DNA of 64,000 nt from Thermoflexia bacterium (GTDB lineage Bacteria > Chloroflexota > Anaerolineae > B4-G1 > SLSP01): NCBI GenBank assembly GCA_011192175.1, contig DUEJ01000002.1:26-64025 (forward strand). Reading direction: 5' to 3'. Below the pieces are notes generated by a model. It did not search any database and was not told the DNA's origin. It was given only the letters and a program-made list of their open reading frames with translations. The position numbers were made by a program, and so were the translations under genes. Shown piece after piece: positions 4,408-34,775 of the stretch. How positions within the stretch are numbered: the stretch's first letter is position 1; each line of letters begins with the position of its first letter.

Positions 4408-5382
4408 ATGTCCGCAGCGTCAATGGTTTCACTCAGCGAAAGTATGCAAATGTATTTGGTCACCATCGCCCGCTTGCGGGAGGGGGCGCAGCCCGTGCCG
4501 CTCTCGCAACTGGCGGATACTCTCACTATTTCCTCAGTTTCGGTCAATGAGATGTGTCGCAAATTGCAGGATCACGGGTTGGTGGTTTACCGGCCATACA
4601 AAGGAGCATCGCTCACGGCGGAAGGGGAGCGGCGAGCTTATTACATCCTCCGCCGCCACCGGCTCTGGGAGGTCTTCCTGGTGGAGAAGCTGGGCTTCGA
4701 TTACGACCAGTCCCACGAGACCGCCTGCCAGTTGGAACATGTCACCTCTCCGCTGCTCGCTGATCGGCTGGACGCTTTTTTGGCATACCCGGCGGTCAAC
4801 CCCAGCGGGGAACCGATCCCCAGGATTGACGGCAGCCTGGCAGAACGGGTATTGCTCTCGCTGACAAAACTCTCGGCGGGACAGGGTGGTCACGTGGCTC
4901 GTTGCGATGTGAACGTGGCGGCGCGCGCTTTCTTGGCCGAACGGGGGCTGCGGCCGGGAGCACGCTTTACGGTGCTGGCAACGGCGGAGGAGAGCTTGTT
5001 GGTGCGAGTTGGAGGGGCGCATATCTCGCTGGCGCGGTCGCTAGGTGAAAATATAAAGGTGGAGTTAGCTGAGAAGAGTAAACTTGCCGCGGATGAGCTA
5101 CAACCATCAATTTTAGAGGAGGAAGTAGAAATGGTAGAGACAAAAAGTAGGCAGATACCGTTGCACAAGTTAAAGGTCGGGCAGCGCGGCGTCATCGTGC
5201 ATGTGGGTGGCCGGGGGCCAGTCAAACGGCGTATGTTGGATATGGGGCTGGTGACTGGCAGCGAAGTGAAAGTGGTGCGCGTAGCTCCCCTGGGCGACCC
5301 CGTTGAATTCACCGTCAAGGGATATAGCCTCTCGCTGCGTAAGTCCGAGGCCAGCAACATCAAGGTCGAGATATCTGCGTGA
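4408..5382 (+). CDS. DtxR/MntR-family metal-dependent regulator with two tandem C-terminal FeoA/SH3-like domains
   Basis: N-terminal HTH plus dimerisation region (MQMYLVTIARL..., RRHRLWEVFLVEKLG). Two FeoA-like segments follow: LTKLSAGQGGHVARC...IKVE and LHKLKVGQRGVIVHVGG...RRMLDMGLVTGSEVKVV...IKVE. Confidence 0.85.
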   Translation: MSAASMVSLSESMQMYLVTIARLREGAQPVPLSQLADTLTISSVSVNEMCRKLQDHGLVVYRPYKGASLTAEGERRAYYILRRHRLWEVFLVEKLGFDYDQSHETACQLEHVTSPLLADRLDAFLAYPAVNPSGEPIPRIDGSLAERVLLSLTKLSAGQGGHVARCDVNVAARAFLAERGLRPGARFTVLATAEESLLVRVGGAHISLARSLGENIKVELAEKSKLAADELQPSILEEEVEMVETKSRQIPLHKLKVGQRGVIVHVGGRGPVKRRMLDMGLVTGSEVKVVRVAPLGDPVEFTVKGYSLSLRKSEASNIKVEISA

Positions 5383-6141: not shown

Positions 6142-6170
6142 AAGTTGCAGGTTAAAGGTTGCAACTTTGT
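6142..6170 (+). terminator. hairpin aagttgca / tgcaactt directly after the stop codon
   Basis: 8-bp perfect stem with a 10-nt loop, then a short T-rich tail. It abuts the left end of the IS. Confidence 0.4.
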
Positions 6171-7540
6171 TAGTGTCACGAAGTATTCGCCACTAGAAAA
6201 CGGTCATGTTTGGCGTGGTCAAAATTGACGACCACTAAAAATAAAGTCAAACAACTGGTTTCATTGGGAAAAGCCCCAATTTCGTCCGCCTTAGTGCGGA
6301 ATACGCGGAAGAAACGTTCCAGCAAATTGGTGGTTCTAATCGCTGGATATAGTTTTTTATCAAAATTATAGAAAGTGAAGGTGCGTTGCAAGCCCCACTG
6401 AAAGGCATGGAGGGCCTGGGGTTCAACGGATTGCCAGCGCTTGACAAACTCCTGTAATTGGACTGGGGCTGCCGCTAAAGAGGGCGCCTCATAAATAGCA
6501 TAAGCCTCCTTTTTTAGTTGACGCCAGCGTTGTTGCCTAGCTTGCTTTGCCGTCAGCCGCTGGCCGGTGGCATCAGTCTCCGGTAAATCCTGGTAGGCCA
6601 GATAGCGGCGCATCCCCCGCACTTTATGCGTGATACACCGCTGCTGCTGGGCCTGCGGGAGGTGCTCTGCCATGGCGGCTAACAATCCGGGAGTACCATC
6701 ACTAACCACTAACTGGACGGCTGACGGATTCAAACCGCGCTCAAGGAGCTGGCCTAGTAGCGTTTTCCAAGCCGCTTCATCTTCATTTTCAGCGATTTCA
6801 TAGTGCAGGATGTAGTGAGAGCCATCCGCCCGCACCGCCATTACCGCGAGCAGCACGCGGTCTTGGGCCTGCCGTTGCTGTCTTTTATGCCCGGCTTGAT
6901 CTATCATGAACTCGTCCAAGGTGTATTGCACCTTGACCCATACTCCATCCACAATTAAGACCTGGGGAGTGGAGGTTATTGGGCATAATCGTTCGGCGTC
7001 TAAGCGTTTTTGGACTTTCAGAGTTACTCGGTTTATGGCGGTAGTGGACAAAACGGTGCCTAGTAGAAAATAGAGGGCCATTTGTAAATCGCGCAGGGAT
7101 AACCCCATCACATACAAATAACTAGCATAAGCCAACAGTCCAACTACGTTTTTTTCATGTCGCTCTAGAATTTGCCAGACCCGTTCTTTGTTGCCTGAAC
7201 GCAGTTTGGGAACCCGCAGGTCCACAATCTGCCCATATTGAGTGTTCACTATCCGCGAATAGTAACCCGACCGCCGCGGAGACGTCGGCAGCTGGGCTCT
7301 GGCGGCCAACAATTCTTCTATCAAAGCCAGCTCTAAGGTCTGGCGCACGGTGGAAATCACCTGGGCTCTGATTTTCTGGGCCAGGGTGGCACTCATTTGG
7401 GGATGAAAACTGGCTGCTTGTATGCGTAATATTTGGGCTTCACGTTTTGCTATTTGCATGAGGAACCTCCTGTATAGGCTGCGGTGGGTTCCTCATTATC
7501 TCACCTTTTTATAGCGGTGGCGAATACTTTAAGACACTAA
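6170..7540 (-). mobile_element. IS256-family insertion sequence (about 1.37 kb)
   Basis: Terminal inverted repeats are ttagtgtcacgaagtattcgccac (6170-6193) and gtggcgaatactttaagacactaa (7517-7540), matching at 20/24 positions. They enclose a single transposase ORF. I found no clear target-site duplication. Confidence 0.8.
6176..7459 (-). CDS. IS256-family (Mutator-type) transposase
   Basis: 427 aa. Matches the IS256 pattern RRSGYYSR...G.I.DLRVPKLRSG...ILERH...GLSLRD...LIVDGVWVKV...VVSDGTPGL...QRCITHKVR. Confidence 0.85.
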   Translation of the reverse strand: MQIAKREAQILRIQAASFHPQMSATLAQKIRAQVISTVRQTLELALIEELLAARAQLPTSPRRSGYYSRIVNTQYGQIVDLRVPKLRSGNKERVWQILERHEKNVVGLLAYASYLYVMGLSLRDLQMALYFLLGTVLSTTAINRVTLKVQKRLDAERLCPITSTPQVLIVDGVWVKVQYTLDEFMIDQAGHKRQQRQAQDRVLLAVMAVRADGSHYILHYEIAENEDEAAWKTLLGQLLERGLNPSAVQLVVSDGTPGLLAAMAEHLPQAQQQRCITHKVRGMRRYLAYQDLPETDATGQRLTAKQARQQRWRQLKKEAYAIYEAPSLAAAPVQLQEFVKRWQSVEPQALHAFQWGLQRTFTFYNFDKKLYPAIRTTNLLERFFRVFRTKADEIGAFPNETSCLTLFLVVVNFDHAKHDRFLVANTS

Positions 7541-7962
7541 CTAATTTTCATCTTGTTCCTCCTGTTCTTGTTAGTTACCTATTTTGTTATACTAGCCACG
7601 TCTAGGAACTTATGTGGTATGCCTCCGTTGCCTTTTCCTCTATCGGTTCTTCATCTTCCCCTCTTGTCGAATTCGGTTTACCTCCTTCCAATCTCCCTCA
7701 ACGATAAACTCCTCCTATTGGAGCGCAGTGCAGCCGGGGCGAAGCCCCGGGGTCGGCTTCATTGAGCAATTAGGCGGAGGCGCCGGGCGCGCGGCTGCGG
7801 CGTGAACACCTCTGCCAGGAAGCTCTCTGCAAGCGCGTTTTCCCGTAACCGCCTGCGGCGCAGACGCATTGAGTTGACGCTCATTGCTCCGGAGCGCCCC
7901 GTTCGCTTACATGTAGTATGTGACAAGACACGCTAGAAGTCAAGGGAAACGAGGGGAGGATT

Positions 7963-12716: not shown

Positions 12717-13628
12717 ATGGTTAACCCCGCAAACATTAGCTTTCTTACCAGGCAAGAGATTATAAACTACGGAACCGCGCAACTGCGCTCTGCGACAGCC
12801 GCGCCGCGCCGGGAGGCGGAGCTGTTGTTAGCTCATCTTTTACATTGCCAACGTCTCTCCTTGCTAACTTATCCAGAGCATGCGCTTACCTCGGCAGAGG
12901 CGCAGAACTACAATGAGTTGTTGCGCCGGCGGGTAGCTGGCGAGCCGCTCCCCTACATCACCGGCAAAATGGAGTTCTACGGCCTCGATTTTGCCGTGAC
13001 TCCGGCGGTGCTTATTCCGCGCCCGGAGACGGAGCTGTTGGTTGACGAGGCGTTGGCGTGGCTAGATATACATCCATGCCAGCGGGCGGTGGAGGTGGGC
13101 ACCGGCTCCGGCTGCATTGCTACCACGCTGGCCGTGCGCGCTCCAGCGCTCCGGCTGACGGCCACGGATATCTCCCCGTCCGCGCTCCAGGTGGCGCGCG
13201 CTAATGCGGCGCGCCACGGAGTCACGGGACGGCTTAGTTTCGTGCAAGGCGATTTGCTGGCACCGTTGGCCGGGCCGTTGGAACTCTTGTTGAGCAATCC
13301 CCCCTACGTGGCGACGTATGAGTGGGATCTGTTGCCGGTATCAGTGCGCGAGGAACCGCATATAGCGTTACTTGCCGGCCCTCAAGGGCTGGATACTATC
13401 CACAGGTTGTTAGCACAGGCATCAACGCGGCTGCGACCGGGGGGCTTGCTCCTGGTGGAATTTGGGGAGCGACAAGGCAATGCCGTCCGCACGTTGGCGC
13501 GGGAGACCTTCCCGGCGGCCCAGGTAGAGATAAAACGCGACTTGGCAGGGAGAGAACGCTTGCTGCGAGTAGAGCGAGTGAGCGAGAAGGCGAGAAGGCG
13601 AGTAAGCGAGAAGAGAGTTCGCCGCTAA
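12717..13628 (+). CDS. prmC: peptide chain release factor N5-glutamine methyltransferase
   Basis: SAM motif VEVGTGSGCIA and NPPY motif LLLSNPPYV. The last ~17 codons (ERVSEKARRRVSEKRVRR) are encoded by an 8-nt repeat array. Confidence 0.9.
   Translation: MVNPANISFLTRQEIINYGTAQLRSATAAPRREAELLLAHLLHCQRLSLLTYPEHALTSAEAQNYNELLRRRVAGEPLPYITGKMEFYGLDFAVTPAVLIPRPETELLVDEALAWLDIHPCQRAVEVGTGSGCIATTLAVRAPALRLTATDISPSALQVARANAARHGVTGRLSFVQGDLLAPLAGPLELLLSNPPYVATYEWDLLPVSVREEPHIALLAGPQGLDTIHRLLAQASTRLRPGGLLLVEFGERQGNAVRTLARETFPAAQVEIKRDLAGRERLLRVERVSEKARRRVSEKRVRR
13572..13617. repeat. 8-nt periodic array (GAGCGAGA-type) x5-6
   Basis: Reads gagcgagt gagcgaga aggcgaga aggcgagt aagcgaga agagag; GCGAG recurs exactly every 8 nt. 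Confidence 0.85.
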
Positions 13629-13762: not shown

Positions 13763-15058
13763 CTACTGCTCAACCGCCTCTCCCCGCGTCACGCCTAACA
13801 TGCAGAGGAAGGCGATTAAAAAGAAGGCCGGCGCGACCAGGAAGATTAGGTTGTAATCACCGCCGCCCCATTCCACGATATAGCCGTTGGTGATGGGGCC
13901 GACGACGGCGGCCAGCTGTGAGGCGAGGTAGTAAAGGCCGGTGTAAGTGCCTAAGTCGGCATTGGAGGCGGCGGTATCAACGACCATAGGAAGCGAGTTG
14001 ATATTGATCAGCGCCCAGGCAATTCCGCCAACGATCAAGACGACCCAGATCAACGTGGCATTGCGGATAAAGTAGTGGGCTAGCAGCAGTGTGCAGAAAA
14101 TAATCAGTCCCGCCATGATGGTTTTGCGGCGTCCCAGCCGCCCCGATAGATAGCCGGCCGGTACGGCGAAGGCTAAGGAGGCGAGCGCCACGGCGCCAGT
14201 TAGAAGCGGGGCTTGTCCCGTGCTCATCCCTAGCTCGCTGACGCCGTAAGAGGAGAGGAAGGTCTCTAAGGCGTTATACCCCACAAACCAGCAGAAAATC
14301 GCCAGCATCAGGAATCCTAGGCTGCGGCGAGCTTCCGGGGAGATGCGCTTGATGCCGCGCAGTGCGTCCCAGCCCTCTTCTTCCGATCCCGAGGTGGCCT
14401 CAAAGGTTTGGCGTTCCTTGATAAAGATGAAGAGAAGCAAGATCGCCACTATCATCAGCCCGCCGCCGAAGATAAAAGGTGAGATGCGTCCCATCTGGTA
14501 AAGGGTATTGCTACCCAACGTGGCGACGAGAGCTCCCATACCGCCCATCAGGTTGATAATGCCGTTGGCCTGCGAACGCAACGGGCTGGGGGTGAGATCC
14601 GGCATCAGAGCGACGACGGGGGTGCGGAAGCCGGCCATCGCCAGCAAGAAGACGCCCACGGCCACCATAAATAGGGATAGTTGCGTGCTTAACTCCCCGG
14701 CTTGGCCGCTCAATTCTGGCGGGATCATACCGACGGTTAGGGGGATGAGGATGAAGGCGAGGATAGAGATGGGAGCGAGAACTAGAATGAAAGGCATCCG
14801 CCGTCCCCAGCGGGTCCAGACGCGGTCGGACCAAATGCCGATCAGCGGGAGGAGAAAGAAGGCAGCGACATTATCTAAGGTCATAATGACCCCGGTTAGC
14901 CCGGCTCCAAAGCCGAACCCTAGTTCGCCAGGGGCCTCGAAGTTGGGATTGCCGGCTTGTAAGAAGATGGGCACGTAGGCATTGTAAAGCGTCCATAATA
15001 CACTGGTACCGAAAAACCCAAAGCCGATGAGAAAAGTGCGTTTGTAATTCAATTTCAT
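13763..15058 (-). CDS. MFS-type (sugar/GPH-like) transporter
   Basis: 431 aa, about 12 hydrophobic helices, with a central charged loop (KERQTFEATSGSEEEG). Confidence 0.8.
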   Translation of the reverse strand: MKLNYKRTFLIGFGFFGTSVLWTLYNAYVPIFLQAGNPNFEAPGELGFGFGAGLTGVIMTLDNVAAFFLLPLIGIWSDRVWTRWGRRMPFILVLAPISILAFILIPLTVGMIPPELSGQAGELSTQLSLFMVAVGVFLLAMAGFRTPVVALMPDLTPSPLRSQANGIINLMGGMGALVATLGSNTLYQMGRISPFIFGGGLMIVAILLLFIFIKERQTFEATSGSEEEGWDALRGIKRISPEARRSLGFLMLAIFCWFVGYNALETFLSSYGVSELGMSTGQAPLLTGAVALASLAFAVPAGYLSGRLGRRKTIMAGLIIFCTLLLAHYFIRNATLIWVVLIVGGIAWALININSLPMVVDTAASNADLGTYTGLYYLASQLAAVVGPITNGYIVEWGGGDYNLIFLVAPAFFLIAFLCMLGVTRGEAVEQ

Positions 15059-15186: not shown

Positions 15187-15266
15187 GGTCTACTATTTAC
15201 TGGCTACTGTCTCTTCCCCACTTCCTCGCTTTCTCGCCTTCTCGCCTTTTCGCTCTCTTGCTCCTC
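15187..15266. repeat. mixed 7-nt then 8-nt periodic array
   Basis: Reads tctacta tttactg gctactg tctcttc ... cttcctcg ctttctcg ccttctcg ccttttcg ctctcttg. A further caaat-type array lies at 15131-15163. Confidence 0.75.
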
Positions 15267-22911: not shown

Positions 22912-24123
22912 TTAGAGAAGTTTCCGACGTCGCTCATCTTCAAAGTTGCGCAAAAGCTTAAGATGTTCAGTGGAAACCACTTGGTTTTCAGTTAATACTT
23001 CCTCAATCGGGGTGCGCCACCGCTCAACAGTATCGCGCAGTTCTTCCCAGAGAGCTAGAATTTCCGCATATAGCATGTCATTTCTTTTATCCAACTCCGC
23101 CAACTCTGTGACGGATTTCTGATTAGCTAAATCTTGCCGGCGCCAATGATCTGCCTCTGTCACCTGGCGCTTTTGCCAATCTTTGGTGAAAATAGTTTGC
23201 CACTCTTCCCATTGCCGCTTCATACGCTCTTCGGTAAGGCGCTGCATCTCTGAGATTTCCCCTTGGCGCCTCTCGATCCGTATACGGAAAGGCTCCAATT
23301 CCCCCAAGTCTCTTTTGATCTGATTAGAGAGCAAGCTGTACTGCTGGGTTTTCTCCACTATGCGAGTTACTGTCTTTTCCATCTCCGCTGCTTGCTCGGT
23401 GAATTTCTTCAACAGCTGCTCCCGTTTGAAATCCGCTATACGCAATTCCTCGATGCGCGGATCATAGGATCTAGCAATGTTGATCGCTTCCTCTACTCGA
23501 CCAGGTAATTTACGCACATTATCTTCTAGCCGGACATTTTTGGCGGTCAACTCAGTCAATTTGATCCTCAAAGGGGGTAATTCTCCTGCCAGCGAAACCA
23601 GTTGCCGGGCATCAGCGCGGCGTTGCTCTTCCAGGTAGGTGATGGATTGTAAACGGTCATCGGTAGACGTGGTCAAATCACGCAGTTCATTACCGATAAT
23701 TTGAATCCGCGCTTGCAACTTGCGTTCCCCCTCCGCCCGGGCTTGCAGGGCCTCATCATAACGCGGAAGTATACGCAACCTTTTATCCAGATCACTGATA
23801 TCCTGGAGAAGAGTCTCAATTTCTGAACGCCGCAGGCGCTCATTCTCGAGCTTCTGACGGTTAACTTTGTCTTTAAGCGTCTCTAGAGTACTAGTTAATT
23901 CACGGCGCGCCTTGTCTATCATGCCGGGATAACTATCGGTACGCCGGAGATCATTGGTTACAAAATCAATCTGCTGTTGCAACTCTTCTACTCTCCCAGC
24001 TCGCGCATCAAGGGTAAGTCGCTGTTGCTCCGTGCGTTCTTGTAGTTGAGAGATGAGGGATTTATCCCGTTTGCGCTCTTCATCTAGAAAACGCACCATC
24101 TGTTCGATTTGTGATAGTTCCAT
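22912..24123 (-). CDS. long coiled-coil protein, unknown function
   Basis: 403 aa, E/R/K/L/Q-rich with heptad-like character throughout. I recognised no enzymatic motif. Confidence 0.6.
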   Translation of the reverse strand: MELSQIEQMVRFLDEERKRDKSLISQLQERTEQQRLTLDARAGRVEELQQQIDFVTNDLRRTDSYPGMIDKARRELTSTLETLKDKVNRQKLENERLRRSEIETLLQDISDLDKRLRILPRYDEALQARAEGERKLQARIQIIGNELRDLTTSTDDRLQSITYLEEQRRADARQLVSLAGELPPLRIKLTELTAKNVRLEDNVRKLPGRVEEAINIARSYDPRIEELRIADFKREQLLKKFTEQAAEMEKTVTRIVEKTQQYSLLSNQIKRDLGELEPFRIRIERRQGEISEMQRLTEERMKRQWEEWQTIFTKDWQKRQVTEADHWRRQDLANQKSVTELAELDKRNDMLYAEILALWEELRDTVERWRTPIEEVLTENQVVSTEHLKLLRNFEDERRRKLL

Positions 24124-24210: not shown

Positions 24211-27200
24211 CTACCGCCGGAAGAGGGTCGTTAGCATTTCCCGCTCTTCTGGCGCCAATAAGTTAATGCGCCACGCTACCAGTGGATAGACCAGCAAGGC
24301 TCCCATAAACGCCCACCAGCGACCTACCATCAACAAGGGCAGGGCGACTACTAGCATCCCGACTAGAGCCACGAGCGGTTTGCCAATAATCTCCCGCCAG
24401 TTGAGAGCGCCTACCTGTTGCCGTAAGCCAATGAGGAAGGGCACACAGAGTAGCAATTCGGCGAAAATGTGGATGACGGCCGAGGCACGGTAGCCATAGC
24501 GCGGTATGAAGATCAGGTTAGCGCCCAGACTGAAAGCGAAACCGAGCAGATAGGCGCGGGTGAGATACCGTTGCTGGTCCAAAGCGATGAGCACGTACTG
24601 GGTGAGGCTATTAATCCACCCGATGGGCATGGACCAGACCATCAATTGTAGAGCGACCATGGAACCGGGCAAATACTCCGCGCCGCCCAAGAGGAAGACC
24701 AGCTCACGGGCAGCCAGCGTGGTCAGGACGGTGACCGGCAGCGCCAATCCCACCAGTAATTTGATACTGAGCCGGTAGAAGCGGAGGAGTTTGGCCGGTT
24801 CTTCTTTTGCTTGTCGAGAGAGCACCGGGAAGATGGCCAACGTGAACATGGCCGGAATCACATTGAGCGCGTCCAAAAATTTATACCCGGTGCTGTACAA
24901 TCCCACGATGGCGCTGCTGCGCATAGCTTCCAACAAGAAGATATCCACTTTGAAGAAGAGGGTGGCTAACAGATGGTTGACCATCAAGGGCCAGGACTCG
25001 CCGAGCATCTCGCGGCGGAGCGCACGTTCCGGCTGCCACGCCGGGCGAAAGAGAAGCCGGGCGGTCAATATCCCCAAGCTACTTACCGTGACCAGGTTGA
25101 CCAGGATGGAAGCCCCGGCTAACCCCGCAATACCCCATCCCCAAAAGAGCACCACGGTGCCCAAAGTGACCTTGAGCAACGTGGAGACGGTGGAGATAAC
25201 GGCCGGATATTCAGCCTTCTCATAAGCGTAGAAAAGTGAGGTCAGCCCTTTGGAGATGGAGCCGGGGATCAGGCCCAGATAAAGCAAGCCTAGAGCGGTG
25301 ATGGCCTGCGTGGATACCGGCGCGGCGAAGAAATTCTGCCGTAACGCGATAAAGCCAACCAATAAAGGCAACCCCACCACGCTCAATGTTAGGCGCAGCG
25401 CGGTGACATTGAAGAGATACCGCGACCCTTGTTCGCGGTGACGAGCCACCTCGCGCGTCAGATAAGCATCCAACCCAAAGTTGGTGATAATATCAAACCA
25501 GGTGTAGAGGGTGATGGCGTAGTAATAGTCGCCAGCGTTGGCCGGGCCTAAAATGCGCAGCATCAGCGCGGCGAACGCGAAATCTACCGCCCGGTTGAAG
25601 AGGGTGAGGAGGATGGGCGCCAGGCTGTTTTTGGCGATGCGCTGGATAGCTGTTTGCTCCTCTTTTTCACGATAGGTGCGCCGCCAGAACCAGAGCACGC
25701 CTAAAAAGAAGATGATCATCCCCGCCAAGAAAGAGATGAACGCGCCGAATTTGACGCTGTTGGGGCTATATTTGAAGCGGACGATCCAGTCGCCCGGTTC
25801 CAGCTGCACGCCCCGGAAGTGCCCCGCGACGCGCGCGATGGAGAGCTCCTTTTCGGCATCCTCGCCGGTACCCTCTGGGCGCACGAAAGCTTTCCATCCT
25901 GGGAAGTAAGCGTCCGTCAACACCAGCCAGGAGTTCTCGTTGACGGAGGCTCCAATCACCACTTGATTGCTCTCGTAGGCAACCACCGGCTGCGCTTGCG
26001 GTTCGGCAGCTTGTGGCGGAGTAGAGAAGCGCGCTGGCGCGCCGTCACTCCAACCACGCGGAGATTCCTCCACAATCACGTAATGCCGGGGATCATATTC
26101 CAAGACCGCCTCGCCCACCGCCTCCACAGCGGAGACTGGTAACGTGGCGCTCTGCGGCAGAGTGAAAGCGCGGGGCATCACGCCCAGATTCTCATAGACG
26201 CGGATGCCCTCATCCTGATAGACCTCGCGGTAGCGGGGCAACGGTATCTCCACATCGGTGAAAATATACTTCACGTTGAGCAGATCGGTGAGCGGGCTAT
26301 CCAAGCTGGAGAATTGCGTGAATGGCGCGATGCGATTGTAGGGTAACTCACCTTGTGGCTCGATCCAACCCATGTAGCGGGCGTACTGCGCTGTGAAAAG
26401 GCTATCGTAGCCGCGCACATCCTGGAAATCGAAGTACATGCCGACGTTGGCGTTGAAGAGCTTCTGCCCGTGCGGATCGAAGGTCGAAAAGCGCCAGAGT
26501 CCCTGATCCTGCCGGAGGAATTGCACCACCTCCGGGGTATATTCCAATAACGCTGGATCAACCTGGGGATTGAACCCCAGACCAAAGCTGAGCAGGTCCA
26601 CCAGCAGCACCACGCCAGCCAGCAACTCCCAAATCGGGCGTTTGTGGCCGGTGCGCGGCAGATAGATGGGGCAACGGGAGACGCGCAGCACAATGCCGGT
26701 GATGATCAGCAGTAGCGCGCTCTGTTGAAGCCAGTGAAATTCATAGGAATAGAAGGCGCGCGGGTTGGGGAAAGCATAAGCCGCCTTCGCCATCGACCAG
26801 AAGACCTTTTCCACCAGCGGTTCAAGCCGCGCGAAGCAGAGGCGTGAAGCCCACAAGCCGCCTAACAGCAGCAGGCCGCCCCAGAGAGCGGTCGCCGCGA
26901 GTATACTCACCAGGTTGGGGGCAGTGTCGAAAAGCGCGAGGCGCTGATACCAGGGGCGGGAACGCGGTTCGGGGGTTCCGTCCTCCGGGCCGTGAGTGTT
27001 ACGGTAGCGGCTAACCGTCGTCGCGCCCAACGCCGCCAGGGATGCGACCGCCACAGTCAGCGGGAAGACCCAGCGGAACGGCGAATGAGATTGACTGATG
27101 AGCGGCAGCGCATAAACAATCGCGTAAAACGGCGTCCCAAAGATGCAGCCCAGCGAAAAGAGCGCCAGCCCGGTGAAGTAGGGAACGTAAGGCTGCAAAA

Positions 27201-28407
27201 ACCAAGCCCGTAAACGCCAGAGCCATCCTCGCTCCCTCGCTTTCTCGCCTTCTCGCTTTCTCGCTTTCTCGCTTGCCGGCTTGAAAATCGCTAAGAGAGC
27301 CAGAAAGAGCGGCAACAAACCCAAGTACGCCCCGCCCTCCACGTAATTCTTGATGTTCCAATTGAAGGCGTTGATCGGTTCGCCGTGCGCATTGACAGTC
27401 GCCTGGAGAAGCTCTCCCGTAAAGAGATCGCGCAACGTGCGATGGGTAGGATTCCCGAAGAAGTTGGGGGTCAGAAAGGTGAGGATGCGCCGTTTGGGAT
27501 AGGCCCATCCCAACACCTCCTGGAGCGTCACCGCTCCCTGCCGGAAACTCGCGGTCACAATCTCGTAGAGCGGGATAAATTGCACCGCGCCCAACGCTAA
27601 TCCCAGCCCGAGCATGAGCAGGAGTCCTAGCGCCGGACTGAGCACCTCGCGGCGCCATTGCGCGCGCGGGATGGTCAAAACACCATGCAGCAGCCGCCAG
27701 GCGGCGAACGTTCCCCCCACCAAGAGGGAAAAATAGGTGATTTCGGCATGTCCGGCCAACATCTGGAGACCAATGCTGAGAGCTCCCAACACGGCCCAGG
27801 GGAGCATAGCGCGTTCAGCGCGCAGGAATGACCGGCGGCTGATGGTGAGTTCCACCAGTGCCAATTGCAGCGGCAGCCACGCGGCCGCTGCCACAATCAT
27901 GGGATGCACCACCGAGACAACCAAAAAACCGCTGAATTGGAAGGTAATCCCCGCGAGGAACGCGCCCAGTTTAGTGGCGTGCATAGTCCGGCCCAGAAGA
28001 TAGCTCGAAATCCCAGCCAATCCCAGCTGGAGCACGATGAATATGCCATAAGCGCGGGGGAGCGGGAAGAGATGAAAGACTAGACTCAACGGGTAGAGCG
28101 CGGAGTGTTGTCCATTAGCCAAGAAGGGATGGCCCGTGAAGAGGAATGGATCCCAGAGCGGCAGTTGCCCGGCGTGGACGCTCTTCACAATAAAGCGTTG
28201 CCAGACGTAATTTTCCAGCACCAAGTCGGCCAAGAGCGGGTTTTGCGGCTCCTCTATCTTGAGAGCGGATTGATATGGTTCAAAAGAATAGAGTGTATCC
28301 GCGGGGAGAAGAGTCTTATTGCCCAACGCGACGGGAGCGAAAAGCAAGAGAGGCAGCAACAAGAGGGCCAGTATCAAGAATAAATCGGTTTTGTAACGCC
28401 GTATCAT
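24211..28407 (-). CDS. fusion protein: YfhO-type GT-C membrane glycosyltransferase + C-terminal MOP/Wzx-type polysaccharide flippase domain
   Basis: 1398 aa. The N-terminal part has YfhO hallmarks (GQLPLWDPFLFTGHPFLANGQHSALYPL ... TDAYFPGWKAFV). The last ~480 aa have a polysaccharide-biosynthesis/MOP pattern (IAKNSLAPILL..., VGLYSTGYKF..., IFPVLSR). Confidence 0.8.
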   Translation of the reverse strand: MIRRYKTDLFLILALLLLPLLLFAPVALGNKTLLPADTLYSFEPYQSALKIEEPQNPLLADLVLENYVWQRFIVKSVHAGQLPLWDPFLFTGHPFLANGQHSALYPLSLVFHLFPLPRAYGIFIVLQLGLAGISSYLLGRTMHATKLGAFLAGITFQFSGFLVVSVVHPMIVAAAAWLPLQLALVELTISRRSFLRAERAMLPWAVLGALSIGLQMLAGHAEITYFSLLVGGTFAAWRLLHGVLTIPRAQWRREVLSPALGLLLMLGLGLALGAVQFIPLYEIVTASFRQGAVTLQEVLGWAYPKRRILTFLTPNFFGNPTHRTLRDLFTGELLQATVNAHGEPINAFNWNIKNYVEGGAYLGLLPLFLALLAIFKPASEKARKREGEKARERGWLWRLRAWFLQPYVPYFTGLALFSLGCIFGTPFYAIVYALPLISQSHSPFRWVFPLTVAVASLAALGATTVSRYRNTHGPEDGTPEPRSRPWYQRLALFDTAPNLVSILAATALWGGLLLLGGLWASRLCFARLEPLVEKVFWSMAKAAYAFPNPRAFYSYEFHWLQQSALLLIITGIVLRVSRCPIYLPRTGHKRPIWELLAGVVLLVDLLSFGLGFNPQVDPALLEYTPEVVQFLRQDQGLWRFSTFDPHGQKLFNANVGMYFDFQDVRGYDSLFTAQYARYMGWIEPQGELPYNRIAPFTQFSSLDSPLTDLLNVKYIFTDVEIPLPRYREVYQDEGIRVYENLGVMPRAFTLPQSATLPVSAVEAVGEAVLEYDPRHYVIVEESPRGWSDGAPARFSTPPQAAEPQAQPVVAYESNQVVIGASVNENSWLVLTDAYFPGWKAFVRPEGTGEDAEKELSIARVAGHFRGVQLEPGDWIVRFKYSPNSVKFGAFISFLAGMIIFFLGVLWFWRRTYREKEEQTAIQRIAKNSLAPILLTLFNRAVDFAFAALMLRILGPANAGDYYYAITLYTWFDIITNFGLDAYLTREVARHREQGSRYLFNVTALRLTLSVVGLPLLVGFIALRQNFFAAPVSTQAITALGLLYLGLIPGSISKGLTSLFYAYEKAEYPAVISTVSTLLKVTLGTVVLFWGWGIAGLAGASILVNLVTVSSLGILTARLLFRPAWQPERALRREMLGESWPLMVNHLLATLFFKVDIFLLEAMRSSAIVGLYSTGYKFLDALNVIPAMFTLAIFPVLSRQAKEEPAKLLRFYRLSIKLLVGLALPVTVLTTLAARELVFLLGGAEYLPGSMVALQLMVWSMPIGWINSLTQYVLIALDQQRYLTRAYLLGFAFSLGANLIFIPRYGYRASAVIHIFAELLLCVPFLIGLRQQVGALNWREIIGKPLVALVGMLVVALPLLMVGRWWAFMGALLVYPLVAWRINLLAPEEREMLTTLFRR
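27227..27274. repeat. intragenic 8-nt periodic array x6 (48 nt, in frame)
   Basis: Reads cctcgctc cctcgctt tctcgcct tctcgctt tctcgctt tctcgctt. It encodes the charged loop EKARKREGEKARER of the YfhO-flippase protein. Confidence 0.85.
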
Positions 28408-29192
28408 TGAGACTCCGTAATACGATCTTGGGACGTTAGCCGGCGGTGCCGGCGCCAGACGTCCCAGACGCGCAAGGTCGCCTCAATTTTGATTTTAAGA
28501 TCCATTTTGGACTCGCCCACTTGCCGGTCAGGGAAGAAAATGGGAATCTCCACTATTTTGTATCCCAGCCGGTGCGCGACGTAGGTCGTCTCCACCTGGA
28601 AAATATAACCCTGCGAGTGAATACGTTCCAATCCAATTCCCCACAGGGTTTCACGACGCCAGGCGCGGAACCCCCCCGTCGCATCCTGGACCGTGCGTAA
28701 TCCCAAGATGAGCCGTGCGTATAGATTACCGCCAGAGGAGAGTACCCGTCGTTGTACGGCCCAAGCAGGGTCAATGCCGCCGCCGGTCACGTACCGCGAA
28801 CCGATAACCAAGTCGGCGGTCTCCAGGGCGGCCAATAAATGCGGCGCCTCTTGCGGCTGATGGGAGAAATCGGCATCCATCTGCACCAACGCAGTCGCCC
28901 CTGCCGCCAGAGCGTGTCGGAAACCATCGCCGTAAGCGTGACCCAAGCCGCGTGGCCCGGTGCGGTGCAATACGTTCACCTGGCCCGGAAAGCGACAAGT
29001 CAATTTCTCCAACAGCTCTCCTGTACCGTCGGGCGAGTTGTCATCCACAAAGAGCACCTGCAACGCCGGTATTGCTAAATCCAAGAGCGCGTTAGCTAGC
29101 GGCTCAACATTGCCAATTTCATTGTAGGTGGGAATCACCACCCAGGGTTTTCGCATATAGTTCTTCACAGTTTTCGTCCTTCGGCCCGCCAT
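28404..29192 (-). CDS. GT2 polyprenyl-phosphate sugar synthase (Dpm1/Ppm1/GtrB-like)
   Basis: VIPTYNE, DDNSPDGTG and QMDADFSH. The stop overlaps the start of the YfhO-flippase gene (4 nt). Confidence 0.85.
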   Translation of the reverse strand: MAGRRTKTVKNYMRKPWVVIPTYNEIGNVEPLANALLDLAIPALQVLFVDDNSPDGTGELLEKLTCRFPGQVNVLHRTGPRGLGHAYGDGFRHALAAGATALVQMDADFSHQPQEAPHLLAALETADLVIGSRYVTGGGIDPAWAVQRRVLSSGGNLYARLILGLRTVQDATGGFRAWRRETLWGIGLERIHSQGYIFQVETTYVAHRLGYKIVEIPIFFPDRQVGESKMDLKIKIEATLRVWDVWRRHRRLTSQDRITESQ

Positions 29193-29220: not shown

Positions 29221-29261
29221 AAAAACAGGGTCAAGAGGTAGATACAACCCCTAGTCCCTGT
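29221..29261 (-). terminator. imperfect hairpin + T-run terminating the ATPase cassette
   Basis: The minus strand reads acagggactagggg-ttgtatcta-cctcttgaccctgt-tttt, pairing at 11/14 positions. Confidence 0.5.
29225..29238. repeat. 14-nt arm ACAGGGTCAAGAGG (perfect inverted partner at 30901-30914)
   Basis: Exact reverse complement of 30901-30914. The flanking nts extend the match to 17/18. Confidence 0.9.
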
Positions 29262-29298
29262 TTAGAATAACGCATTTAGGATAATCTATGTTACCAAA

Positions 29299-29829
29299 TC
29301 AACGCGGTGAGGATATTGTTCTCACCCTCAGTCCTAATTTACTACTGGCTAGATCCTGATTATATACTTGCGTTTCATCCAACGAGAAGATTTTACTTAT
29401 AGGCCCACATTCTTTCCGCAGACTGTCACGTAATGGCCCCAACCACTCCCGTTTGATATCTCGAATAATGAGTACCAATCTTATGGGATGAGTTAAAATA
29501 GTTAGGCTCTTCAATGGAGCGGGAAGATTGGTGGCCTGAGTATTATGCCTGTTAGCTACCGCGGCCACATAAACTAAAATTGAGTCCCTAAATTTCTTAC
29601 GTATAGCTGCTACATATTCATCCGGTTTTCTCGGTGCAGATGACTTTACTTTAATGAACAGCAATTCCTCGCCTGCATTTCGCAAGCAGATGAAATCGCA
29701 GATGCTGACCCCATACGTGTTAAGACCTTTGTGACCGCGATAGAAATCCTCTCGTTCAGGAGTAAAAACCTCTTCCTCGCGAAAAGTGAATATCAAACCC
29801 GATTCCTCAAATTCTTTGCCGCGCTCCAT
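29299..29829 (-). CDS. 176-aa protein of unknown function with restriction-endonuclease-like (E...D...KxK) signature; partner of the ATPase
   Basis: ATG lies 3 nt after the ATPase stop (TAA TTG ATG). GKEFEE ... VSICDFICL ... EELLFIKVKSS, followed by a helix then IRLVLIIRD, suggests an alpha-beta-beta-beta-alpha-beta nuclease-fold order. Lys occupies the usual acidic position. Low GC. Confidence 0.6.
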   Translation of the reverse strand: MERGKEFEESGLIFTFREEEVFTPEREDFYRGHKGLNTYGVSICDFICLRNAGEELLFIKVKSSAPRKPDEYVAAIRKKFRDSILVYVAAVANRHNTQATNLPAPLKSLTILTHPIRLVLIIRDIKREWLGPLRDSLRKECGPISKIFSLDETQVYNQDLASSKLGLRVRTISSPR

Positions 29830-29832
29830 CAA

Positions 29833-30849
29833 TTACCCTTGCAATTCGACATCAAGCTCATTCTCGTACAGGGCAATTGAGGCATCAATAATTGGATTAT
29901 CTGGCATCTCTTTAGATAAATCGGTGATAGTGTATTGAGAAGTATCAATAAACGATATGGTTTGTATGTTCACAGATTCCCGTTTGGCTATGACATACAG
30001 GTGCTTAAGCACAAAATAGGAATGAGAAGCTAAAAATACCTGGGTACCAGCTTTTGACAATAAATATAAAATCTCCATAAAGGCCGCCACCGCGCGCGGA
30101 TGCAAGGTAGCCTCTGCTTCATCTACAAACAAGATAGAATTAGGAGTCAAGGTGCGATTCTCGATAAGCCGATCAACTAAGGCCAGACGTTTTGTTCCTT
30201 CAGCCGTAATCTGGATGGGATGCTTGACTTGACCTTCTTTAAATATCCATTGCTTATCTTCTCGTGCTAATCTGCCGTGGAGAAGTTTTGATAGTTGCTT
30301 GCGCGCCCTTACCAAGTCTGGATAATTATTTCCCTTTTGGGGAGGACGTTTAACAGCAATTGCCAGATCCAAATAGCTATCATCAAAACCAAAAAGCCGG
30401 TCTTGTAGCCTTGACGTCTCAATAATCGGCATCAAAGAGAGGATCTCTTTGGGAGGTAAAAATAGAGAAACGGCATCTCTTCTAGGCGTAACAAGTTTAG
30501 AAATTTCTCCTACTCCATGTCCCGCCGAGCGAGTAAACGAGAAATAAATCTGCTGTCCATCTAGTTTACAATCACAACGGAGATGGTTTGAGGAGCCTTT
30601 CCTGACCAGATCCCCAATATGTTTCAATTGAAAAGTGCCACGGAGTTTATCATTGAGGATTTGCTTAAAACTACGCACATCATCACCGCGTTGATAACCT
30701 TCCGTGGCACGAGTTATAACATATAACATTTTCAGCAGTAGACTCTTACCACTGCCATTTGGGCCTATAATCAAATTTATCTTAGGAGATACCTCCCATT
30801 CTACCTTTTTTAAGGGGCCACAATTTTCTAACACAAACTTTCTGATCAT
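29833..30849 (-). CDS. ABC/AAA_21-type (SMC/RecF-like) ATPase without fused effector domain
   Basis: Walker A GPNGSGKS, signature-like ITAEGTKRL, Walker B ILFVDEAEATLHP, H-loop LASHS. 338 aa. Sampled lines are 35-47% GC. Confidence 0.8.
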   Translation of the reverse strand: MIRKFVLENCGPLKKVEWEVSPKINLIIGPNGSGKSLLLKMLYVITRATEGYQRGDDVRSFKQILNDKLRGTFQLKHIGDLVRKGSSNHLRCDCKLDGQQIYFSFTRSAGHGVGEISKLVTPRRDAVSLFLPPKEILSLMPIIETSRLQDRLFGFDDSYLDLAIAVKRPPQKGNNYPDLVRARKQLSKLLHGRLAREDKQWIFKEGQVKHPIQITAEGTKRLALVDRLIENRTLTPNSILFVDEAEATLHPRAVAAFMEILYLLSKAGTQVFLASHSYFVLKHLYVIAKRESVNIQTISFIDTSQYTITDLSKEMPDNPIIDASIALYENELDVELQG

Positions 30850-30900
30850 CGTTGTTTATCCCCATTTATATAAAAATAAACCACCCCGAAATAGTCTCTT

Positions 30901-30914
30901 CCTCTTGACCCTGT
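30901..30914. repeat. 14-nt arm CCTCTTGACCCTGT (inverted partner of 29225-29238; 11/14 direct copy at 29248-29261)
   Basis: Lies 15 nt downstream (on the minus strand) of the response-regulator stop codon. Confidence 0.9.
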
Positions 30915-30929
30915 CGCAATTCGCCCCAT

Positions 30930-31832
30930 TTACACCGCTTGCCGGTAAAATAAAACCTCTCGCAATGTGGTGATATTTACCTCTGTTGGTATCTGAACGG
31001 TTGAGAGTTTCTGCATATTAAAAATCAATTTAGGAATAGGCGAGCCATCCCGGCAGGTCCCGCTTTCCCAATCTTGACGGGGGTAGAAAAAAGAAAGCGC
31101 CTCATTCAAACGTTGATGTAAGCGTCCTATCACCAGATAATGTTGGTTGCTGGGAATAATAATCACAAACTCGTAGGCGGATAATTGACCCACAAAAGGT
31201 TCTTCTTTCATGACCTCCGCGACGGTACTTTTGAGGATAAGCGAGACAGCTCTCAGTACATCATCGTGAGTGACGAAACCGTAAAAATCTCCAAATTTTT
31301 TTAACCCGCGGAGCTTAAGTCCCACCAGACATAAATTGTCAGTCTTCCGTATCTCTTCGATCTCTTCTTCTACCAACGTGGAAATAGGCAGCTCGGTGAT
31401 GGGGTGCAATAAAGTATTGATGTCTTCACGGTTCAAGATATTGCGAACGCGGTATCGCAATTCCTGTACATCAAAAGGCTTCGTGATGTAATCCACCGCC
31501 CCTAAGTTTAAGCCCATCAGCCGATCCATGCGCTCACTGCGCTCGGTGAGGAAAATGATCGGGATATTCTTGGTGCGCCGATGGTCACGCAAGCGTGTAC
31601 AAATCTCGTAGCCATCAATGTCTGGCAGGTGAATATCCAAGATTATCAAATCCGGGGGAGATTCTGAAGCAAACGCGAGAGCATCTTGTCCCCAAGCGGC
31701 ATAAGATACTTCATAGTTCAATGAAGAAAAATACGAGACCAGCATATCAGATGTACTAGGATTGTCTTCCACTATCAAAATATGATGGGGAGACTCTTCT
31801 CCCGTAACCGACATAACAGCATCAATGGGCAT
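30930..31832 (-). CDS. response regulator: receiver domain + degenerate GGDEF-like output domain
   Basis: REC motifs (ILIVEDN, LIILDIHLPDIDG, ITKPF). The C-terminal half aligns by pattern to the GGDEF fold (HPITELP.., FGDFYGFVTHDDVLR), but SAYEF replaces GG[DE]EF. Confidence 0.75.
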   Translation of the reverse strand: MPIDAVMSVTGEESPHHILIVEDNPSTSDMLVSYFSSLNYEVSYAAWGQDALAFASESPPDLIILDIHLPDIDGYEICTRLRDHRRTKNIPIIFLTERSERMDRLMGLNLGAVDYITKPFDVQELRYRVRNILNREDINTLLHPITELPISTLVEEEIEEIRKTDNLCLVGLKLRGLKKFGDFYGFVTHDDVLRAVSLILKSTVAEVMKEEPFVGQLSAYEFVIIIPSNQHYLVIGRLHQRLNEALSFFYPRQDWESGTCRDGSPIPKLIFNMQKLSTVQIPTEVNITTLREVLFYRQAV

Positions 31833-33668: not shown

Positions 33669-34775
33669 ATGAAACACAAAATTCTCTCAGTAGCTGGATT
33701 GGCGACAGTGCTGTTGACCATAGCTTTACTCGGCGCCGGGTGCGGACTCAATCCGCAGTTCACCTACCAGGGCCGCCTGACCGACGAAAATGGAATTCCT
33801 CTAAATGGCGACTACTCGTTTACCTTCAGGCTCTACAAGAGTGAAACGGGTGGCACAGCTTTTTATGAGGAGCCCAAGACGTTGACGGTGGAAGATGGGC
33901 TTTTCGATACCGAGGTGGGACCATCTAGTACTGTGTCCGGGTTGGGGGCGGAGGATCTTTCTCAGCCATTATGGCTGGAGGTAGAAGTTGATACCGAAAC
34001 CTTAACCCCTCGGCAGCGTCTATATGGCGCACCTTATGCCTTTACACTGATGCCCGGCGCTTACATTTCCACCACGATGAGTACAGTCATCCATGGGGCG
34101 AGTGGAGCAAAGGCTATCCTCAACGTGGTAAACTCGTATGACGGCAACGATGTGGGGGGGAGCGATCCGGCCTTGCCCGCGTTGCGAGTGGTCGGTGAGC
34201 AAGGAATAGAGATCGTCAACCCCATAGATTCAGGGGCTAGTATTCATAGTGATATGAGTAGTAGCTTTAGTGACCTATACCTGTACAGTCACGACGATAT
34301 CGAGCTTTTTTTAGACCACGATGCTAACAGTACTGGCTATTTTCGTATCCGCAATGGGGCAGGCCTCATTGTATGGTATGTTGATGAGAGTGGTAATCAC
34401 ACAGCATCAACCTTCCAATCTGAAGTCGACGCAGGAGATAAGAGAGTGAGTCTCTATGCCGTTCAGAGCACGGAAAACTGGTTCGAGGACTTCGGCGCGG
34501 CATCCTTGAAGAACGGCGAAGCCGTGGTGGAGATTGAACCGCTCTTTGCCCAGACGGTTAACTTAGGTGAGGATTACCGCGTATTCCTCACCCCGTTGGG
34601 AGATTGCCACGGTCTCTACGTGGCAGAAAAAACGGCTACCTCCTTCACGGTGCGGGAGCTGGGCGGCGGGACTGCGGGGGTTGATTTTGATTACCGCCTC
34701 GTCGCCAAGCGGTTGGGCTACGAGAAGGAACGACTGGAGCCAGTTTCTACTAACCTACAAACGGATGATGAGTGA
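33669..34775 (+). CDS. lipoprotein with tail-fibre-like N-terminal repeat region, unknown function
   Basis: Lipobox LLGAGC. YQGRLTDENGIPLNGDYSFTFRLYKSETGGTAFYEE...VEDGLFDTEVG resembles N-terminal repeats that I recall from proteins annotated as tail-fibre-domain proteins. AAGGAG RBS upstream. Confidence 0.65.
   Translation: MKHKILSVAGLATVLLTIALLGAGCGLNPQFTYQGRLTDENGIPLNGDYSFTFRLYKSETGGTAFYEEPKTLTVEDGLFDTEVGPSSTVSGLGAEDLSQPLWLEVEVDTETLTPRQRLYGAPYAFTLMPGAYISTTMSTVIHGASGAKAILNVVNSYDGNDVGGSDPALPALRVVGEQGIEIVNPIDSGASIHSDMSSSFSDLYLYSHDDIELFLDHDANSTGYFRIRNGAGLIVWYVDESGNHTASTFQSEVDAGDKRVSLYAVQSTENWFEDFGAASLKNGEAVVEIEPLFAQTVNLGEDYRVFLTPLGDCHGLYVAEKTATSFTVRELGGGTAGVDFDYRLVAKRLGYEKERLEPVSTNLQTDDE

Follow-up and report, generated by a model that had tools for sequence, protein, structure and literature searches.

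Several anti-phage systems share a presumed logic in which an ABC ATPase acts as sensor and a separate or fused nuclease as effector, i.e. PARIS (AriA/AriB), Septu (PtuA/PtuB), Gabija (GajA), AbiL, OLD, PD-T4-4 and Menshen (NsnB). Hma-embedded candidate 02 (HEC-02) consists of an ABC ATPase and a NERD-like PD-(D/E)xK protein and was described as embedded in Hma systems; one representative cut phage plaquing in E. coli, for which both genes were needed, and the small protein, HEC-02B, was reported with a (D/E/Q)xK motif (Payne et al., bioRxiv 10.1101/2024.01.29.577857). In the literature searched, the name HEC-02 was not met outside that preprint. In this work, we analysed a pair of genes of this type in a stretch of 64,000 nucleotides from a Thermoflexia bacterium of the Chloroflexota (GCA_011192175.1, contig DUEJ01000002.1, positions 26 to 64,025), hereafter the window, whose own numbering is used throughout. 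The pair had been singled out by a model that read the DNA without database searches (the sequence-only reading). We consider it likely that the two genes form an HEC-02 module inserted long ago beside a terminator, with duplication of one terminator arm, and that its effector is probably decaying.

The two genes of the cassette are the following.
29833-30849, minus strand: ATPase gene, HEC-02A, 338 aa, with Walker A, signature-like motif, Walker B and H-loop all intact.
29299-29832, minus strand: partner gene, HEC-02B, 177 aa from TTG (29299-29829 and 176 aa from the ATG at 29829).

In the window, neither frame is interrupted, and the stop codon of the ATPase directly abuts the partner start in the junction GGG TAA TTG ATG, i.e. 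the genes are translationally coupled. The ATPase translation contains GPNGSGKS (Walker A), ITAEGTKRL, ILFVDEAEATLHP and LASHS; these motifs, the coupling and the two minus-strand genes are all as quoted in the sequence-only reading.

Both proteins matched HEC-02 models of PADLOC-DB v2 over their full length. The ATPase matched HEC-02A (PDLC04214) with an E-value of 7.5e-122 and 404.8 bits, residues 1-336 aligning with positions 1-337 of the 338 of the model, and the partner matched HEC-02B (PDLC04221) with an E-value of 1.5e-34 (residues 7-164 on positions 4-165 of 171), as well as six more HEC-02B models. In Pfam, the ATPase fell into generic families only (AAA_21, E 2e-20; AAA_15, E 3.2e-16). 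Pfam and PADLOC searches had been proposed along with the initial observation, and AAA_21, AAA_15 and HEC-02A for the ATPase and HEC-02B for the partner are what they returned. The PADLOC models of PARIS, Septu, Gabija, AbiL, OLD, PD-T4-4 and Menshen gave weak matches to the window ATPase (E 1e-21 to 1e-9, and 1e-21 to 1e-12 for AriA, PtuA, GajA and AbiLi), whose match to HEC-02A is better by about 100 orders of magnitude; the effectors of PARIS, Septu, Gabija, AbiL and similar systems also differ, being of TOPRIM, DUF4435 or HNH type. Membership of Septu, PARIS, Gabija or AbiL was rejected, as the partner had no HNH, TOPRIM or DUF4435 match in Pfam or PADLOC.

The gene arrangement is likewise that of HEC-02, with the ATPase followed by the small partner on the same strand, coupled, and with sizes of 338 aa and about 170-180 aa. 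The same adjacency and co-orientation were found in the window, in three further loci (L081, L164 and L170) and on a Comamonas plasmid, and the partner family shows an E...D/E...ExK pattern. The window copy differs from described HEC-02 in three respects: (i) it has Lys for the Glu of ExK; (ii) it is neither embedded in an Hma system nor near another recognised defence gene; (iii) it lies at the boundary of a housekeeping operon in a Chloroflexota metagenome-assembled genome (MAG) and is known here from sequence alone. Judged by its profile matches, the cassette is a member of the known HEC-02 anti-phage system, not a new system and not a new effector type. The sequence-only reading had proposed an uncharacterised module with maybe a new effector type, which does not hold, both proteins being full-length matches of a phage-tested system; its proposal of a horizontally acquired, defence-type module made of an ATPase and a small effector is supported.

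An exhaustive HMMER search with the partner retrieved 375 cluster representatives at E<=1e-3, nearly all of 160-185 aa and named 'hypothetical' in their sources; no match to the partner was found in Pfam (E<=0.1), NCBIfam or PHROGs. Alignments of 61 and 151 sequences showed conservation of E9, S10, F14, D/E45, E60, K62, P66, K79, R94 and L120, among which E9, D/E45, E60 and K62 vary little or not at all and follow the order E...D/E...ExK. This pattern is typical of PD-(D/E)xK nucleases, in agreement with the order of elements that had been read from the partner at the outset; the residues then put forward for mutation (D46/K62/K64) were misnumbered by one or two and are D45, K60 and K62 when counted from the ATG. 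An AF2 model built with 42 sequences was confident (pLDDT 93.4, pTM 0.90). In this model, residue 45 adjoins strand 46-50 and residues 60-62 lie on strand 55-62, i.e. the conserved acidic and Lys residues follow each other on predicted strands as they do in HamA (Hachiman) and the FokI cleavage domain. Foldseek matched the model only weakly to FokI (probability 0.54, TM 0.37) and HamA (TM 0.34). The sub-threshold Pfam matches of the 61 family members (best 0.0039, PDDEXK_4) are mainly to PD-(D/E)xK families (PDDEXK_4 for three members, AHJR-like, VRR_NUC, MmcB-like, Mrr_cat, NOV_C and RE_XamI). The partner differs from NERD and other PD-(D/E)xK nucleases by the absence of a significant sequence or fold match, its profile giving chance matches only against PDB sequences, and by the Lys that replaces the catalytic Glu in the window copy. 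On the motif pattern and on the structural comparison of the HEC-02 preprint, the partner is likely a PD-(D/E)xK protein.

Two lesions were found in the effector, one in the window and one in a near-identical variant, the metagenome contig L172.
29650-29652, minus strand: codon AAA of Lys60, in place of the near-invariant Glu of ExK (codon of K62 at 29644-29646).
29658-29856, minus strand: segment of 199 bp absent from L172, i.e. the last 8 ATPase codons and effector codons 1-58, including the effector start.

The window protein reads K60-V-K62 at the place of the (D/E/Q)xK motif. The column of residue 60 holds E in 148 of the 150 aligned representatives and K in the window protein only. A sister lineage that also carries the cassette (L170/L083, 84-86% identical to the window at the DNA level) has GAA at codon 60 and reads IEVK. 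L172 (JGI 3300005264), which is 99.7% identical to window 31328-24811, has AAA at codon 60 too; its blastn comparison with the window gave two blocks (31328-29857 and 29657-24811). The Lys noticed at the outset at the second acidic position is not a feature of the family but a substitution confined to this lineage among the compared sequences. A premature stop in L083 was rejected as a real lesion and attributed to a low-coverage variant, since the 99.9%-identical L170 gene is intact.

The acidic residue of (D/E)xK in PD-(D/E)xK enzymes binds the catalytic metal. The effector of the window genome is probably catalytically dead or impaired, and the window partner is an HEC-02B member by descent with a variant, probably inactive, motif. 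The module as a whole is probably decaying, its defence function lost or being lost. Between the window and the sister lineage, dN/dS computed on protein-guided codon alignments was 0.165 for the ATPase, 0.21 for the partner and 0.134 for the flanking response regulator (RR) gene; these low values indicate purifying selection over most of the history of the cassette here, so that the lesions are recent. A fully functional HEC-02, in which KxK is still catalytic or the effector acts without cleavage (e.g. by DNA binding or by regulating the ATPase), would also account for such values (0.17-0.21 since the divergence from the sister lineage) and for the intact frames and ATPase motifs of the window. 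We nevertheless regard it as rather unlikely, given the near-invariance of Glu at position 60, with Lys in the window protein only. Furthermore, the title of PDB entry 8vxy, nuclease-dead HamA (E138A, K140A), illustrates that mutation of the equivalent ExK residues is the usual way of inactivating such an enzyme, and a 99.7%-identical variant devoid of effector codons 1-58 suggests relaxed selection.

The position of the cassette was analysed together with its flanking genes and terminator elements, listed here in the direction of transcription.
30930-31832, minus strand: RR gene (response regulator, degenerate GGDEF domain), last gene of the Roadblock/LC7-V4R-RR operon, based on Pfam and on synteny with more than 25 relatives.
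30901-30914, minus strand: proximal copy of the terminator left arm, ACAGGGTCAAGAGG, 15 nt after the RR stop, with the native upstream flank GCGAATTGCG kept.
29262-30900, minus strand: inserted DNA of 1,639 bp, made of a 51-nt leader, the two genes and a 37-nt trailer, with no recombinase gene.
29248-29261, minus strand: distal left arm, ACAGGGACTAGGGG, part of the retained ancestral terminator, 11/14 against the proximal copy.
29239-29247, minus strand: terminator loop.
29225-29238, minus strand: terminator right arm, CCTCTTGACCCTGT, perfect complement of the proximal arm, then TTTT.
29221-29224, minus strand: terminator T run.
28404-29192, minus strand: GT2 gene, polyprenol-phosphate mannose synthase-like glycosyltransferase, based on Pfam and source names; flanking host gene.

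With the RR protein as query, genome and metagenome collections yielded 160 Chloroflexota loci with an RR identity of at most 61%. More than 25 of them have the order Roadblock/LC7, V4R, RR, GT2 and then a 1398-aa membrane protein, with an RR-GT2 gap of 0-270 nt, and no HEC-02 genes were found between RR and GT2 in these loci (RR identity 39-61%). These relatives served for synteny and not for defining the empty site at the sequence level; close relatives were reached via the list of GT2 homologues. In the closer Chloroflexota relatives, the RR-GT2 spacer holds a GC-rich hairpin and a T run, the intact terminator of the closest ones being ACAGGGCC.. loop ..GGCCCTGT-TTTT. Empty sites were found in three of these.
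L166, GCA_034717835.1: GT2 88% identical.
L173, GCA_030643165.1: GT2 89% identical.
L169, ERZ1757541: GT2 79% identical; outgroup.

In all three, RR is followed after 15-16 nt by the intact hairpin ACAGGGCCnnGAGG-loop-CCTCTTGGCCCTGT and TTTTGTTGT, and then by GT2; the junction of L166 reads RR stop, GCAGAGTGAATTGCT ACAGGGCCCAGAGG AACTC CCTCTTGGCCCTGT TTTGTTGT, GT2. The filled sister lineage, represented by L170 (L083 and L171 are 99.9% identical), has the order RR, ATPase, partner, GT2, with an intact partner of 181 aa. Its proximal junction is the same as that of the window (GCGAATTGCG ACAGGGTCAAGAGG), the proximal arm being identical, and its distal end is a complete hairpin nearly identical to the empty-site one, ACAGGGCCTAGAGG GAGTT CTTCTTGGCCCTGT TTTGTTGT. 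The distal left arm of the window corresponds in alignments to the left arms of the empty-site hairpins and of the distal hairpin of L170, and the right arm and a TTTTGTTGT-like tail are kept in all relatives. Homology of the window with the three empty sites covers RR and the left arm, breaks off, and is found again from the distal left arm to the T run, across loop and right arm; therefore, the left arm is present twice, as a 14-nt direct repeat around the 1,639-bp insert. As read from this comparison, the cassette is an insertion, the ancestral terminator is kept whole 3' of it, and the proximal arm is the duplicated left arm.

The insertion at a terminator was anticipated by the sequence-only reading, which had suggested a search for the empty sites now found in L166, L169 and L173, and the 14-nt arm, its perfect complement followed by TTTT and the degenerate third copy (11/14) lie exactly where it had placed them. 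Its hairpin model stands as to these three elements and the direct repeat, and fails as to the split hairpin, the complete ancestral hairpin being retained distally. In the split-hairpin scheme, the cassette would sit in the terminator loop and the distal left-arm-like copy would be part of the insert. The complementarity of the proximal and right arms, which is perfect over 14 nt, extends to 19/21 nt and is better than the local pairing, speaks for it, as does the reconstructed hairpin, which folds at -31.7 kcal/mol. However, the distal left arm and loop of the sister lineage (ACAGGGCCTAGAGG GAGTT) match the empty-site arms at 13/14 and the proximal copy does so at 11/14, an internal mismatch at arm position 9 is common to all functional hairpins and absent from the proximal copy, and both filled lineages have a complete distal hairpin. 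The scheme is already disfavoured, and we hold it to be improbable.

The perfect 14-nt complementarity in the window is explained by the proximal arm being a copy of the hairpin arm, i.e. largely by descent, together with a G-to-A change in the right arm: the window has an A there where all relatives have G, and this A pairs with a T of the proximal copy, whereas the same long-range pairing in the sister lineage requires two G·U wobbles. Chance expectation for inverted matches within 3 kb in the 64-kb window is about 0.7 for 14-mers and about 11 for 12-nt seeds, so that the repeat by itself is unremarkable; between the two flanking spacers (80 and 106 nt), however, such a match is rare, 0 of 20,000 shuffles reaching 14 nt. 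Hairpin energies were -16.7 kcal/mol for the local terminator of the window, -21.1 for that of L170 and -23.6 to -24.0 for the empty sites; the window terminator is weakened, a further sign in favour of decay, and its loop is different from and longer than those of the relatives. A consensus scan recognised no terminator, the local one being missed because its hairpin has internal mismatches. Just after the proximal arm, AAGAGAC (30894-30900) is complementary at 5 of 7 positions to GTATCTA of the 9-nt window loop (29239-29245). In the sister lineage, the sequence is unrelated at either position; the match may have been left by template switching or by conversion between the inverted copies, or be due to chance (about 1%).

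As regards timing, dS between the window and the sister lineage was 0.51-0.52 for the cassette genes, equal to that of the flanking RR gene (0.55), which points to one old insertion, predating the split of the two filled lineages, and to vertical inheritance under purifying selection since then. Among the four close lineages, flanking genes are 83-87% identical; on the RR side, the filled lineages pair with each other (0.865), and so do the empty ones (0.867). A single insertion explains the data most simply, and precise excision through the direct repeats could still have occurred later in one lineage.

Base composition was compared among the 51 open reading frames (ORFs) of at least 150 aa in the window (mean GC 0.556, sd 0.052; mean GC at third codon positions, GC3, 0.631, sd 0.094). 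The two cassette genes are the lowest of all in both GC (0.415 and 0.436) and GC3 (0.378 and 0.421), in favour of an insertion. Three line-by-line GC values counted by hand in the first inspection were exact (0.35, 0.467 and 0.633). The adjacent RR gene is likewise low in GC (0.453), natively so, its orthologue from an empty-site relative standing at 0.457; a sharp GC step is thus seen on the GT2 side only.

That the ancestor already had the cassette at this site, and that recombination between the 14-nt direct repeats removed it from the relatives and restored a clean terminator, is a remote prospect. The flanking repeats would permit such a precise excision, and on the GT2 side the empty L173 is as near to the filled lineages as these are to each other. 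Against this, the more than 25 distant loci and the outgroup L169 are all empty, the cassette has the lowest GC and GC3 of the window, and the RR side groups the two filled lineages.

HEC-02 pairs elsewhere were found in other contexts. In L081, an M23 peptidase gene and ligA flank the pair, with an AbiEii-like gene nearby; in L164, another Chloroflexota MAG, a 50%-identical pair lies between sugar ABC-transporter permease genes and a GH116 gene; and a Comamonas IMP-1 plasmid carries a homologous pair with a recombinase gene on one side and IS26 on the other, which also speaks for insertion. These more distant HEC-02 pairs are packed into unrelated operons as tightly as the window copy. Neither L081 nor L164 has a flanking arm duplication or inverted repeat, and the association with a terminator is therefore not general. 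Viral contigs scanned with the ATPase contained no relatives, and tblastn found no homologue in phage genomes. Upstream of the L164 pair, four tandem 15-nt units (CAGTAGGTCGGTGTT) were noticed at 4790-4864 of that locus.

The idea that the 14-nt inverted repeats are the termini of a non-autonomous transposable element carrying both genes deserves next to no credence: a perfect inverted repeat does bracket a 1.66-kb segment and an IS256-family element occurs elsewhere in the window, but both arms are homologous to the host terminator of genomes without the cassette, the repeat has no other copy in the window, and the related cassettes of L081 and L164 have no such repeats. An autonomous mobile element (IS, transposon or integron cassette) was also considered and rejected, the insert having no recombinase of its own, no element-specific terminal repeats and no attC, and the inverted repeat being host terminator sequence. 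The closest parallels are IS elements that target REP sequences and mobile introns that target terminators, which resemble the present case by insertion at a hairpin and by a flanking direct repeat of the target sequence; the window insert differs in having no transposase, intron or integrase, and in a duplication of 14 nt that coincides with one hairpin arm.

The duplicated arm might be more than a scar, a suggestion that we regard as doubtful. It could reflect a way, undescribed so far and independent of recombinases, for small defence cassettes to enter between a stop codon and an intrinsic terminator, e.g. staggered breakage or template switching at the hairpin. Alternatively, it could be maintained for long-range pairing, in which the proximal arm and the right arm would compete with the local terminator hairpin and tune read-through into GT2. 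In the window, the long-range pairing includes T7:A8 and reaches 19/21 nt, next to a weakened local hairpin; in the sister lineage, T7·G8 forms a wobble instead.

The account that we favour, an old insertion of HEC-02 beside the terminator, would run as follows. A common ancestor of this Thermoflexia-like lineage and of one sister lineage would have acquired the module horizontally, with HEC-02A, an ABC-type ATPase, as presumed infection sensor or regulator and HEC-02B, a small NERD-like PD-(D/E)xK protein, as presumed nuclease effector (both roles being those of the HEC-02 preprint). The landing point would have been between the stop codon of the RR operon and its intrinsic terminator. The insertion doubled the 14-nt left arm: one copy now precedes the cassette, and the complete hairpin, T run included, follows it. 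The cassette would since have been transcribed as a 3' extension of the RR operon and ended by the old terminator. Finally, the metal-binding Glu of the effector was replaced by Lys and, in the near-identical variant, the 5' third of the gene was deleted, so that the defence function is probably lost or being lost. Of this account, the HEC-02 membership, the insertion, the doubled arm, the substitution and the deletion are shown by the sequence comparisons, and the roles of the two proteins, read-through expression and the loss of nuclease activity are inferred. As to expression, the spacer between RR and the ATPase contains no strong hairpin and no convincing minus-strand consensus promoter; with the cassette lying between the RR stop and the sole terminator, expression by read-through from the RR operon with termination at 29221-29261 is the most likely arrangement.

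Several points weigh against this account. HEC-02 itself rests on a single preprint, with one representative tested in E. coli. The PD-(D/E)xK fold of the partner is without independent confirmation: the Pfam NERD model matched neither the window partner nor the 61 family members, and Foldseek gave no match to the partner model in PDB and BFVD at E<=1e-3, so that the structure prediction suggested by the sequence-only reading delivered the confident model but no significant fold match. The MAG and L172 may come from related samples, in which case K60 would not be documented in fully independent populations. The omega of 0.21 places the effector under purifying selection for the greater part of its history, so that any loss of function must be recent, and E60K is conceivably tolerated. 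The phylogeny of the four close lineages is near-star, and the GT2 side does not clearly group the filled ones. Finally, the insert contains no recombinase gene, and no known mechanism was found for a 14-nt duplication that coincides with a hairpin arm.

Other features were recorded in and around the cassette. Inside it, two inverted matches, 29298-29314 / 30679-30695 (16/17 nt) and 29385-29410 / 30757-30782 (26 nt at 77%), are probably due to chance; one of them overlaps the partner stop codon, and each has its other arm within the coding sequence of the ATPase. Near the cassette, two conserved genes (22912-24123 and 33669-34775) have no Pfam match: the 403-aa one has a GC of 0.486 and occupies the same place in L166 and L169, and the 368-aa one has a signal-peptide-like N-terminus. 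The 1398-aa membrane protein 3' of GT2 (24211-28407) has YfhO-like, Polysacc_synt and MurJ-like segments; its counterpart in L169 (6762-10950) is called as a 1180-aa gene after a 645-nt gap, which may reflect a frameshift or another fusion state. An IS256/Mutator-family transposase gene on the minus strand (6176-7459; Pfam Transposase_mut, E 9.6e-52), some 22 kb away from the cassette, has 34-nt inverted repeats on either side (6160-6193 / 7517-7550, 82% complementary); together they look like an intact IS element. Low-complexity inverted repeats of 39 nt (13571-13610 / 15221-15263; GAGCGAG/GAAGGCGAG units, 90% complementary) bracket an MFS transporter gene (13763-15058, minus strand).

For defence biology, the locus adds little, HEC-02 being already in PADLOC-DB and tested: its insertion history is clear and its natural history well resolved, the insertion signature is unexplained, and no new system or effector class emerges. 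The odd motif residue is a lineage-specific lesion and not the sign of a new effector class, which serves as a caution. What the locus does offer is a clean series of filled and empty sites for a recombinase-less two-gene defence cassette set between the stop codon of an operon and its terminator, where it would borrow the transcription and the terminator of the host operon. It also appears to catch the first decay step of such a module, a catalytic Glu-to-Lys substitution followed by a 199-bp effector deletion in a population variant.

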